The notes under the pieces were generated by a model. It had not been told where the DNA came from, made no database searches, and worked only from the letters and a program-made list of their open reading frames with translations. From Octopus sinensis (lineage: Eukaryota): a DNA stretch of 64,000 nt. Position 1 is the first letter of the stretch; the number at the start of each line of letters is the position of its first letter. The DNA lies in the NCBI RefSeq assembly GCF_006345805.1, contig NC_043001.1:77314001-77378000 (forward strand). The letters run 5' to 3'. This document shows positions 2,644 to 35,541 of this stretch, piece by piece. The position numbers and the translations under genes were made by a program.

Positions 2644-2874
2644 TATTTCTTTACTACCCAGAAGGGGCTAAACACAGAGGGGACGAACAAGGACAGCCAA
2701 AGGGATTAAGTCGATTATATCGACTCCAGGGCATAACTGGTACTTATTTAATCGACCCCGAAAGGATGAAAGGCAAAGTCGACCTCGGCGGAATTTGAAC
2801 TCAGAACGTAGCGGCAGACGAAATACGGCTAAGCATTTCGCCCGGCGTGCTAACGTTTCTGCCAGCTCGCCGCC
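2644..2874 (-). mobile_element. SINE family B, full-length
   Basis: Reverse complement of the 2250 copy. Confidence 0.9.
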
Positions 2875-2934
2875 TTTATTGCACAATACCACCTTACTAA
2901 TACTTCAAAACAAGTATCGTTCATCTTCGTAGCA

Positions 2935-3123: not shown

Positions 3124-3226
3124 GTTTAAAACTTTACCTGGTGATGGTGGATTGTATATAACGATGCAATCTTTTTATGACGGCATAAAATAAAACTTAC
3201 CGAAACAGGTGTCGTAAATTTTAAAC
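3124..3226 (+). ncRNA. Type I hammerhead ribozyme motif (A6G variant) with branched stem II
   Basis: Stem I GTTTAAAAcTTTAC/GTAAATTTTAAAC; core CTGGTGA at 3138-3144; stem II GGTGG/TTACC; GAAA at 3202-3205; stem III AC-aggt-GT; GUC triplet at 3211-3213. Confidence 0.75.
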
Positions 3227-3254
3227 GCCATTTGTGGTTTATTTTATACATACA

Positions 3255-3360
<106 letters not shown>

Positions 3361-3405
3361 TATATATATATATAAAATGATATGTTACATTTTACTCAAT
3401 AGTCA

Positions 3406-3468
3406 AGATAAAACTCTGAGTTTCAGAAGCCGAAGTAGAAATCCACAACACCATCTCTTCGGTTATCT
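3406..3468 (-). ncRNA. Hammerhead-like motif (CCGAAGA core) in inverted PLE terminal repeat
   Basis: Minus strand AGATAA-CCGAAGA-[decayed stem II]-GAAA-CTCAGAG-TT-TTATCT, with a perfect 6-bp stem I. Confidence 0.6.
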
Positions 3469-3780
3469 GGCCATCCGAAAATCGCTATGAAAAAATACCG
3501 TTATATAAAGGGAAATTACTGTGTTATAATTCTGCTCGCGAACCCACGTGCGTACTTATACTTCACTATGAAAACGTACACATCTTCACTCGCATTTTTC
3601 GCCAAATATATACGCATATATATACAAACTCATACACACACATGCGTACCGTAAAAGTTCATACATACGTCTATATACGCACAAGCACATACGGCTAATC
3701 ATTTCGCCCGGCGTGCTAACGTTTCTGCCAGCTCGCCGCCTTTATTGCACAATACCACCGTACTAATACTTCAAAACCGC

Positions 3781-4233
3781 TAATACAAATGGACCAGCAC
3801 ACGATCGTTTTAGGAAGGATATTATCCAATTAATGAAATACTTCGGACTTAGTATAACTATAGATACTAACCTGACGGTTGTCAATTTCCTAGACGTTTC
3901 CTTACATCTAAATAAGAATATTTATAAGCCTTATTGGAAGCCCAATGATAAACTTAGTTATATTAATGTAGGTTCATACTATCCCCCTATAGTATCCAAA
4001 AATTTTGTTAAAAATATTAGTAAGAGAATTTCTAGCCTCTCCTCCGATAAGGATATTTTTAATAGCGTTGCCCCAGTTTATAATAAGGCTTTAAAAGATA
4101 GTGGTTTTAGCGAAAAAATAAAATATACACCTGTTACTAGCCCAACAGTAAAGAAGAGGAAAAATAGAAATAGGAAGATCATCTGGTTTACACCCCCTTA
4201 CTCACCTGAGGTGACCTTCAATATAGGTAAATC
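3781..4233 (+). mobile_element. Penelope-like element RT C-terminal/linker fragment
   Basis: ORF 3833-4255: VVNFLDVSL, YKPYWKPNDKLSYINVGSYYPP, RKIIWFTPPYS are typical PLE motifs. Confidence 0.85.
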
Positions 4234-6074
4234 TTTTATCTTGACTATTGAGTAAATGTAACATATTTTATAGATAAACTTCCTCTATTTACATAATATT
4301 GAGGTCTTTTTCTTTCTTTTGTTATCTTACCGTTTTTACCAATATATATATATATATTATATATATATATATATATATAATATATATATATATAGATATA
4401 TATATATATATATATATATATACGGATAAAAGAAATAGTAAAATATGATTAATGAATAAAGACTAATATGAACAATGACGAAAAGTTATCAAATATAATT
4501 AACAAGCTGAGAATAACAAGGAGAATAATAAAATGATTAATGAATGGAAACTAATGCAACTATTGATTAGAGAACATAACGGAAAATTGCAAAGTAAGAG
4601 AGATATTAATTTCTTCAATATATAGGAACAACAAACAAAAATGACGAAATTGTGATTAACGAATTAAGATTAACTTGAATAAAGATTAATGAATAATAAA
4701 GTGACAATAGCTGTAAAGGTGTTTTCAAGAGTGTTTTAAACATTAAAAAAATATATAAAAAAATGAATATAGAATAATGTATAACGGGAATGAAATTAGG
4801 AGTAAAGACTAATAAAGCAGGAACAATAAAAGTCTTTGAAGAATATTGAAATCTCAAAGATTCCATTGTTCTGTGAACGGAATGGTCGTTCACTAGAATT
4901 GGATTTTCCCTTTGATGTATCAATATTCTATTGGAAGCAATGTTATTGATAAGCTAAATGCGTACACTCTCATTCCCACACATATATGTACATGCATATA
5001 CACACACTTATATAGAATTTATTACATATACTTACATACATACAAACATAAACCAGATGAAGCCTTCTCGTAGCTGATACATGTGCTAGAAACAGCAACC
5101 AAATCTCACTAAATTTATTTACTACCATCTTACGTATGGAAATAATACATCCAATAATACATCAGGTGGCCAGGATTAAAAAGCATCTAATCATGGGTAT
5201 AATCAATCAGGACTGACCTGGGGCTGAACAACAACAATATTAACGAACTCATACAGAGTTGATTCGTATTATTTCAGTTAATAAGAGCCTCATTGAACTG
5301 TTAATAGATAACCAGGTTTTGAAAACGGATGATCAGGTCCCTCTGTTTTTCTGGTCGAGAGAGCACTATGCTAGGTTGGTTCAATCGTGATTCTTACCCC
5401 CCCCCCCAAAAAAACCATGTTACATATTAAGTATTATAATAAAGATTTTATTATTTTTTTTGTTGCCGAGCTCGTATCATCATCCGGTGTGTGTTTGTGT
5501 TTATCTTACAATATGTGAGGTTTAAGTAGATGAGGAACAAACCTACTTCACTCCTGAATAAGTTTCTAGGTTATTGTAAGTGGGTTTTGTCTTTGTAAAT
5601 CAAGAATGGTACTTTACTTCAACAAAATACTTGCACGTGCTGTTGCTGCAATTGGCGCAACATTAGATCATGATGTCATTTTGTAAATGAAGTTCCCCTT
5701 ACAAATGAAAGAAAAAGCAAAACAACTGTACTGTTTAGAAAATGTTGTTTGATAACGGTAAGAGTGCTTCTCTCTGCCCTGATTTTAAGTTGGTCATTTC
5801 TTGTTATTGATGAGTGCTGGTTGCAGGAAGCCATTAGATATGGATTAGTAGCTATAGTTATTACAAACACATACAATAGATCCTATATTCTTTAAGCAAA
5901 AGAGTGTACTGGGCATTTTTGATGTGTTTGTGCAACATAACGATATACTATCGTTGCTATTCTCAGTTGAGAGCTATCAATGGATATAAATATTAAATAT
6001 AAACGCGGATTACAAACAAGAAGAAAGAACAAAACAGAAAGAATAAAACAAAGAATAAAACAGAAAGAATAAAA

Positions 6075-6590
6075 CAGAACTACTTGATAAAGATATTCCT
6101 ATTCCACTTCTGAAAGTCTATTTACTCTTCGAGCAAATGGAAAGTTTGATAAAGCGTATGCGATGGAAGGCTTACGACAACGATAAAGGCATGAAGAAGA
6201 GGACCAGGCACGGGGAACACGACCTTAGATTCAAATGCCGGAAATGTTCATCTGAAAACAAAGACTCAGATGCCTTTGAAAATGTCCACATTTATTTAAT
6301 CAAGAATAAAATATTCAGAAGCAGAATCAATAATTTTTAACATAAGCTAAGCTAGAATATAAACACAATAAAATTCCCTAAAAACGTGTTCGTATTTGCT
6401 GAGAAAACAAGGAAATCTGTGAGTTAAGTAAAGATTCCTACAACAACAACTTATACAATGACGCCATAGTTTCCTACAAAACATCTAAGAGTGGCTTATC
6501 GAAAGAAATCAAGTGAAAAGCACAACACACAGCTACAAACATAAAATCTCAGTAATACTAGAATGACATAATAAAATACAAGACTTCATT
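6075..6590 (+). mobile_element. Penelope-like element N-terminal fragment
   Basis: KDIPIP ... ESLIKRMRWKAY ... VFVFAEKT (PLE 'ADK' region), with stops and frameshifts. Confidence 0.7.
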
Positions 6591-35100: not shown

Positions 35101-35260
35101 CACCGTGATCACCGTAACCGACCAGGCTATCAGATGTTGCTACACATCGCTGGTGACAATGCGTTCGCATTGTTTTAGCCCTCGAATGACGCCACCCCGC
35201 TGGCTAAGCGAGCAGGCCAATATATATATATATATATATGTGTGTGTGCGCGTGCGTGCG

Positions 35261-35510
35261 TTATAATTTAGAAGAAACAGTAAGAGGTTGTCATTATAGT
35301 ACTCAGAGTTTCGAATGTCGGATCGAAGGGCTACAATGCATTCTTGTCGGCCATTAATGGTAAGAGACGCTATGAAAAACCTTTCAGTAAAAGGGAAGTT
35401 ACTCCGAGTACTATGACGACAACTTTTTACTGTTTGTTCTAAATTATAACTTATATAAATACTCCTCTATTTATCTAACATCGGAGTCTCATTCTTTTGT
35501 TATTACTTAC
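35261..35510. mobile_element. PLE terminal-repeat unit with inverted arms and minus-strand HHR motif
   Basis: IR at about 35261-35304 / 35406-35449. Minus strand CCGACAA-GAATG...CATTC-GAAA-CTCTGAG-TA. The tail resembles 4275-4330. Confidence 0.65.

Positions 35511-35541
<31 letters not shown>

Follow-up and report, generated by a model that had tools for sequence, protein, structure and literature searches.

A four-part Hydra-clade Penelope-like insertion in Octopus sinensis with an internal junction that overlaps a predicted hammerhead cleavage site

Introduction

Penelope-like elements (PLEs) of the Hydra clade are marked by the RWK, DKT and CxCX5C motifs and by a C-terminal GIY-YIG without CCHH; nearly all Hydra families are listed with (TA)n as their target (file S1 of Craig et al. 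2021, PMC8557442), and inverted truncated copies with tails at a single end are standard for PLEs according to the same source. The function of the PLE hammerhead ribozyme is called unclear in that report. Minimal PLE hammerheads have been studied by Cervera and de la Pena (2014, PMC4209133); they are of type I, carry a short palindromic stem III and are presumed to act as dimers. Opposite-strand pairs of such motifs are common, and the metazoan representatives cleave weakly in vitro.

Two further systems are relevant to the question of how a ribozyme might leave its mark on an insertion. For PAc, the Poseidon element of Anolis, in vitro work revealed that both strands of the target are cut and extended, and that reverse transcription (RT) begins at two internal start sites (Frangieh et al. 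2024, PMC11167929). An element with a dead ribozyme inserts equally well, RNA-seq ends at the cut site were not found, and no cut-site junction is reported in the available part of the study. In R2, an HDV-like ribozyme sets the 5' end of the RNA and influences the 5' junctions seen in the genome, in which chance microhomology also plays a part; it thereby provides a precedent for a cleavage-defined junction (Eickbush et al. 2013, PMC3774820).

Here we describe a PLE insertion within a stretch of 64,000 nucleotides of Octopus sinensis (NC_043001.1, positions 77,314,001 to 77,378,000), referred to below as the window. An initial annotation had proposed that a junction within this insertion falls at the predicted ribozyme cleavage site and that self-cleavage had defined the RNA end used in reverse transcription or in a template jump.

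Anatomy and Identity of the Insertion

The insertion is a 971-bp copy of a Hydra-clade PLE that sits in (TA)n and is built of four parts. From left to right, these are a 3' arm in inverted orientation, 89 bp copied from host DNA, an ORF fragment comprising the RT end and thumb, and a 107-nt tail (Table 1). The (TA)n flanks on both sides are as expected for a Hydra-clade insertion, and the canonical PLE layout of an inverted 5'-truncated copy with a one-sided tail is found both here and in E2, a second copy in the window. The hammerhead lies near the 3' end and on the ORF strand, as its downstream tail is joined to the ORF in sense orientation.

The frame at 3776-4234 is open over 153 codons, and its translation is 43-54% identical to whole proteins with RT and GIY-YIG (best match: Apostichopus japonicus, E 8e-41). 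RWK, DKT and CxCX5C are present in all four of the whole relatives; these motifs and the GIY-YIG fall outside the fragment present in the window. An 11-residue stretch of the fragment occurs, within the available supplement of PMC8557442, only in Hydra-1_Obim. Judged from its sequence, the fragment belongs to a Hydra-clade PLE whose closest named family is Hydra-1_Obim. Pfam matched no family on the fragment, a 22-nt pattern of the family gave 0 matches in metagenome contigs, and no relatives of the element were found in viral contigs.

Hydra-1_Obim and other Hydra families likewise have a (TA)n target, a 3' hammerhead with a palindromic stem III, an inverted 5'-truncated copy and a one-ended tail (Craig et al. 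2021, PMC8557442). The window element nevertheless represents a different family than Hydra-1_Obim, as the flanks of the ribozyme and the tail differ by eye. The Hydra cores listed in that work are all CUGA, whereas that of the window element is CCGA; the long tail is extended by 70 nt, compared with 30-40 in Hydra families; and, in contrast to Hydra-1_Obim as described in the available text, the window element possesses an internal ORF-to-tail junction and a captured piece of host DNA.

Table 1. Positions of the features discussed in this study; numbers following a sign are relative to the predicted cut.
Feature	Position	Strand	Basis
Source of the captured piece, some 460 bp to the left of the insertion	2823..2911	+	sequence comparison
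Microsatellite on the left, (TACA)n followed by (TA)n; target run	3245..3371	.	sequence
Short tail of the inverted left arm, 3' of the predicted cut; end about +36 to +40	3372..3411	-	alignment with right arm
Type I hammerhead motif, predicted cut between 3412 and 3411	3406..3468	-	motif scan, covariance model, fold energies
Likely 3' untranslated region of the element, 5' of the ribozyme	3469..3688	-	homology to E2 as far as about 3520; contig depth about that of ORF bins
Captured copy of nearby host DNA: end of a SINE and 36 nt of unique flank, orientation as donor	3689..3777	+	87/89 identical to 2823-2911
Piece of a Hydra-clade PLE ORF with RT end and thumb	3775..4236	+	protein identity; sibling contigs
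Three-T microhomology at the ORF-to-tail junction	4234..4236	+	alignment, sibling contigs
Right arm, the long tail, -2 to +107	4234..4342	+	alignment with left arm
CCTC...GAGG hairpin at +47	4282..4304	+	fold
Right (TA)n run	4343..4423	.	sequence
E2, diverged second copy of the same inverted design, without ORF	35260..35511	.	arms 44/50 identical

The 89-bp host copy in the spacer between the two arms is absent from the initial annotation. This copy is located at the inversion point of the element, and the inner boundary of the likely 3' untranslated region is set by the place at which it begins. The 36-nt unique part of the captured piece is absent from the five other SINE copies that were compared; because the unique flank was carried along, the piece represents a local capture, and template switching happened at this locus. 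The captured piece ends at 3777 and two sibling contigs begin to match the ORF piece at 3775, so that 3775-3777 is common to both. The region of the donor contains two inverted SINE-type repeats (2241-2486 and 2638-2883; 246 nt, 88% complementary, 151 nt apart), of which the right-hand one is the source of the captured piece.

Other traces of PLEs were encountered as well. Positions 6089-6412 hold a decayed N-terminal piece of another Hydra-clade ORF with an RWK motif and in-frame stops (E 3.5e-13 to the relative P0002), and 19591-19731 matches the RT thumb of another PLE type weakly (E 0.005-0.3). Among the relatives collected from public contigs, L080-L084 are filed as bacterial MAGs and carry Hydra-clade PLEs with hammerheads; they are likely contamination from an animal host.

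The Hammerhead Motif

The hammerhead at 3406-3468, the only match of the hammerhead motif scan in the 64 kb, has a stem I of 6 bp, the core CCGAAGA, a long imperfect stem II, GAAA and a stem III that is palindromic (dimer-type); GUU stands at the cut. A covariance model derived from 38 related ribozymes (93.9% of cells paired; covariation 0.72 versus 0.21 when shuffled) also ranks this segment first in the window, albeit weakly (16.8 bits, E 0.07, stem II unaligned). Rfam yielded no match at gathering level in the window and, up to E 10, no ribozyme in 3200-4500. The motif scan and the weak covariance-model match thus agree on the minus-strand hammerhead that the initial annotation had placed here.

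The 6-bp stem I and the palindromic stem III surround the core. In helix II, 9 of the 13 positions pair in the window copy and 10 of 13 when two majority letters are used, with one U left unpaired before G12. By these letters, which make up about 99% of depth at 3428 and 3437, two pairs of stem II are restored, including a change from G-U to G-C; the structure of the ribozyme thus looks maintained in the family. Contig depth is highest over the ribozyme and the tail extension and exceeds that of the ORF bins several times, which hints at an abundant non-autonomous derivative.

The core CCGAAGA (U4C) departs from the type I consensus CUGANGA ... GAAA ... UH. CTGA is found in 77 of the 79 motifs of relatives and CCGA in none of them; the core of E2 is also CCGA. 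Among the majority-letter changes listed (40 of 139), none affects position 3461. In addition to U4C, the window motif differs from the minimal PLE hammerheads described in PMC4209133 in that the unpaired base of stem II is on its 3' side, whereas theirs is on the 5' side. The U4C change lowers hammerhead activity, yet it sufficed for a viroid in vivo (PMC3088659).

The active-like fold of the window copy is predicted to lie 8 kcal/mol above the minimum (-6.5 versus -14.5), in which the core is paired with stem II. CCGAAG in the core (3457-3462) is perfectly complementary to CUUCGG within stem II (3430-3435, minus strand). The fold that pairs these two segments would hide the catalytic core, and it may relate to the U4C change.

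Tail Hairpin and Candidate Start Sites

A GCTC-N8-20-GAGC hairpin, frequently in two copies, follows the predicted cut at +41 to +61 in relatives (L003-L081). Among 59 distinct motifs, 45 had a tail that could be used, and the hairpin was detected at this place in 38 of these 45 distinct relatives, compared with 13 of 4500 shuffles; no description of it was found in the available portion of PMC8557442. This hairpin 3' of Hydra ribozymes is a candidate RT start or protein-binding site. In the window, the arms of the insert end at about +36-40 (left) and +107 (right) and thereby flank the CCTC...GAGG hairpin, which is the counterpart of the GCTC...GAGC hairpin in the window family, while the short ends of relatives lie at +32 to +56 in 12 of the 18 motif copies that have (TA)n within 200 nt downstream. 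These short insertion ends are situated just before the hairpin. By analogy, the two arm ends would fit the two internal RT start sites of PAc (PMC11167929). In PAc, short and long ends stem from starts downstream of the ribozyme, as would be the case here, and the target is AT-rich in both systems; PAc, however, belongs to another clade, its ribozyme overlaps the ORF start, and cleavage is dispensable in vitro (PMC11167929).

In relatives, the sequence that follows the ribozyme recurs ahead of the ORF start. Three near-whole Hydra elements (L022:965, L035:3022 and L045:675) have 5' ends after (TA)n at +68 to +103. These ends fall in the zone in which long tails end, and the three copies are possibly unit-length, permuted insertions.

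The ORF-to-Tail Junction

When 3372-3413 (minus strand) is aligned with 4234-4271 (plus strand), 38 of the 42 columns are identical, with two gaps (1 and 3 nt) and zero substitutions; the inverted repeat has a blastn E of 3.7e-10 within the window. The repeat, which the initial annotation had delimited as 3371-3413 and 4234-4272, is thus real, with the slightly different limits given above and with a right arm that continues to 4342, 70 nt farther. As had also been stated, the right copy is fused to the PLE ORF fragment, whose frame is open. The right-arm equivalent of the predicted cut is the bond between 4235 and 4236. The proposal that the junction coincides with the cut site stands insofar as this bond lies within the breakpoint interval; homology, however, begins at 4234, 2 nt 5' of the cut, whereas a cleavage product would begin at 4236.

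The breakpoint interval was delimited with contigs from 4 public runs (of 24 listed), which were aligned to 3372-4345 at 80% likeness. Three sibling ORF contigs (X1 record 8; X6 records 27 and 32) match through 4236 and then diverge from the window; hence, the TTT at 4234-4236 fits both sides, and the breakpoint may be at -2, -1, 0 or +1. Phe is the commonest residue at the codon formed by these three T's (27 of the 38 relative proteins with the motif). The ORF piece therefore has a 3-nt overlap at each of its ends, 3775-3777 and 4234-4236, and nothing of the ribozyme is present at the first. As an overlap of this kind exists at an end of the ORF piece that is free of the ribozyme, such overlaps appear to be the way in which the insert was stitched. 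What the DNA itself shows is the set of four pieces and the order in which they stand, a 3-nt overlap at either end of the ORF piece, and the captured host DNA.

Simulated junctions that join the real ORF to the real 3' region have a homology interval spanning the cut in 0.6-1.9%, and in 2.0-6.2% when a 3-nt overlap is required. A coincidence of 0.6-6% is unusual for a single locus, but it is not unusual across a scan of many windows. Among the pieces listed from the four public runs, none spans the whole insert, and none of those listed from X6, which is guessed to be RNA, bridges the junction. Splicing was considered as a source of the junction and set aside: the ORF holds a GT 7 nt upstream and stem III an upstream AG, yet a join between the two would give other letters. 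One ambiguous junction does not settle the question of ribozyme cleavage.

Second Copy, Sibling Contigs and Relatives

E2 is a foldback copy with a ribozyme arm and a long tail. Its minus-strand ribozyme motif has a predicted cut between 35300 and 35299, and the letters of its stem I differ from those of the first copy yet still pair (by eye); the covariance model did not recover E2. Its tail is about 71% identical to the right arm of the first copy. The right arm of E2 begins at 35401, 10 nt before the equivalent of the cut (interval -10 to -7), and thus contains the uncut site, so that both E2 arms hold it. The left arm of the first insert likewise reads through an intact predicted cut site.

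One sibling contig from X2, with 20 letters on its short side, passes from 3471 in the left arm to 4234 across two intervening letters, which puts the start of its right arm at -2/-1. Of 65 contig joints, 15 were listed, and among these five link the left arm to the right tail; four of the five (at 4280-4284, with letters of unassigned origin in between) were set aside because they likely represent a variable linker of diverged subfamilies. Among the informative right arms in Octopus sinensis, two of three start at -2 to +1, one of the two having been selected for that property.

The relatives comprise 84 loci from public contigs (limited, for metagenomes, to the best 80 of 335 matches), with 79 motifs in 65 loci. 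Most of the 68 partial matches touch the edge of a contig or of the query, or are short cross-family matches. Usable arm starts are at +6 (L054), about -37 (L013, by eye), +66, +68, +91, +93, +103 and -203; none of these eight lies within 2 nt of the cut, a weak test as the loci were chosen for long ORFs. The starts in L005 (+2), L007 (+7) and L052 (-5) coincide with assembly edges and were not counted. The aligned data, which consist of contigs only and are thus weak in this respect, list no site at which many molecules begin or end. Arm starts seem loosely drawn to the edge of the ribozyme and not to one bond.

Discussion

The explanation that we favour, although we give it slightly less than an even chance, is that the junction arose from a microhomology-guided template jump at the edge of the ribozyme, for which cutting of the RNA is not needed. 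Two cDNAs would have been primed on opposite target strands at a near (+36-40) and a far (+107) start site, in the manner of PAc. The left cDNA would have started at the near site and read straight through the intact ribozyme, while the right one would have started at the far site, paused at helices I and III, and then jumped into the ORF over the three T's, thereby skipping about 0.9 kb of the element (a size taken from relatives). A second jump over three bases would have led it onto host DNA 0.46 kb upstream, and the right cDNA would finally have been joined to the left one. The captured host piece (87/89) testifies to template switching at the locus and thereby provides independent support for a jump during insertion; on this reading, the ORF-to-tail junction would date from the insertion event as well. 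The scatter of arm starts (-2 to +1 here, -2/-1 in X2, -10 to -7 in E2, +6 in L054, about -37 in L013) also speaks for a template jump; so do the uncut site held by the left arm, the in vitro insertion of PAc with a dead ribozyme (PMC11167929) and the unfavourable predicted energy of the active-like fold. Against a reading that invokes nothing but a jump, chance spans the predicted bond in just 0.6-6%, a second contig starts within 1-2 nt, and the ribozyme looks maintained.

A rather less probable, though quite conceivable, explanation departs from the template jump outlined above in one step, namely that the right cDNA came off the end of a cut RNA. The tail would then be the 5' start of a ribozyme-cut, unit-length RNA, and reverse transcription from about 107 nt inside would run off the cut end. 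The product, a strong-stop-like cDNA, would be obliged to jump, here into the ORF, aided by a single templated A to which one or two more may have been added. The inclusion of the cut site in the breakpoint interval, which chance accounts for in 0.6-6%, and the start of the X2 right arm are in line with this run-off; moreover, strong-stop geometry exists in relatives, given the post-ribozyme sequence that recurs ahead of the ORF and the hairpin at +41 to +61. U4C reduces, but need not abolish, activity (PMC3088659), and in Drosophila the R2 ribozyme cuts at the precise 5' junction, with junctions then varying via chance microhomologies (PMC3774820). The R2 case differs, however, in that cleavage was assayed, sets of junctions were compared, RT proceeds from the RNA 3' end and the junction is with the target, whereas the window junction is with the element's own ORF (PMC3774820). 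The run-off further demands a match of both T's that precede the cut, whether through luck or through non-templated addition. The CCGA core, found in none of the 79 motifs of relatives, counts against it, as do the poor cleavage of metazoan PLE hammerheads in vitro (PMC4209133), the role of uncut RNA as the main template for PAc (PMC11167929) and, as weak evidence from contigs only, the lack of a listed pile-up of molecule ends. Also against the idea that self-cleavage defined the end are the intact site in the left arm and in both E2 arms, the E2 start 7-10 nt upstream and the absence of starts within 2 nt among the eight non-edge starts in relatives, whose loci are biased to long copies. What stands of the initial annotation is the template jump, backed by the captured host piece, and the position of the cut inside the junction; the role of cleavage is weakened by the four-position ambiguity and by the 3-nt overlap that is free of the ribozyme.

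The junction might also have been formed after the insertion, an explanation that we regard as unlikely. Together with the left arm, a continuous 5'-truncated right arm (ORF, 3' untranslated region, ribozyme and tail) would originally have made up a long inverted repeat, and slippage or end-joining would have removed about 0.9 kb between two TTT runs, the position of the ribozyme being incidental. An ORF piece followed by the tail is the natural order of the element, deletions by slippage or end-joining leave 3-nt microhomology, and long inverted repeats are prone to deletion; coincidences of 1-6% are, furthermore, expected to surface when many windows are scanned. Such a deletion, however, leaves the X2 sibling (-2/-1) and the E2 start within 10 nt of the site unexplained, and the insert looks fairly young (2/89 differences between donor and copy; 153-codon open frame), so that a second event would have had less time to occur.

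A broader conjecture, which we consider doubtful, is that the RNA on which Hydra-clade PLEs rely in vivo is of unit length and cut by the ribozyme. RT would start at the GCTC...GAGC hairpin, some 40-110 nt inward from the cut 5' end, and the strong-stop cDNA would normally jump to the RNA 3' end or round a circle; the insert and X2 would then be mis-jumps that preserve a trace of the cut, and the U4C ribozyme would work.

Conclusions

The overlap of the junction with the cut site is a suggestive coincidence and likely records an ordinary template jump. In the literature searched, with partial coverage, we found no report of PLE junctions at a hammerhead cut site; should junctions be found to pile up at the cut bond, this would be the first in vivo record of PLE hammerhead action, and the very high copy number of this family makes it a good place for counting them. 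The solid part of our analysis is a worked example of a PLE insertion that was stitched by template switches, including the capture of nearby host DNA, and, equally solid, a conserved hairpin 3' of Hydra ribozymes.
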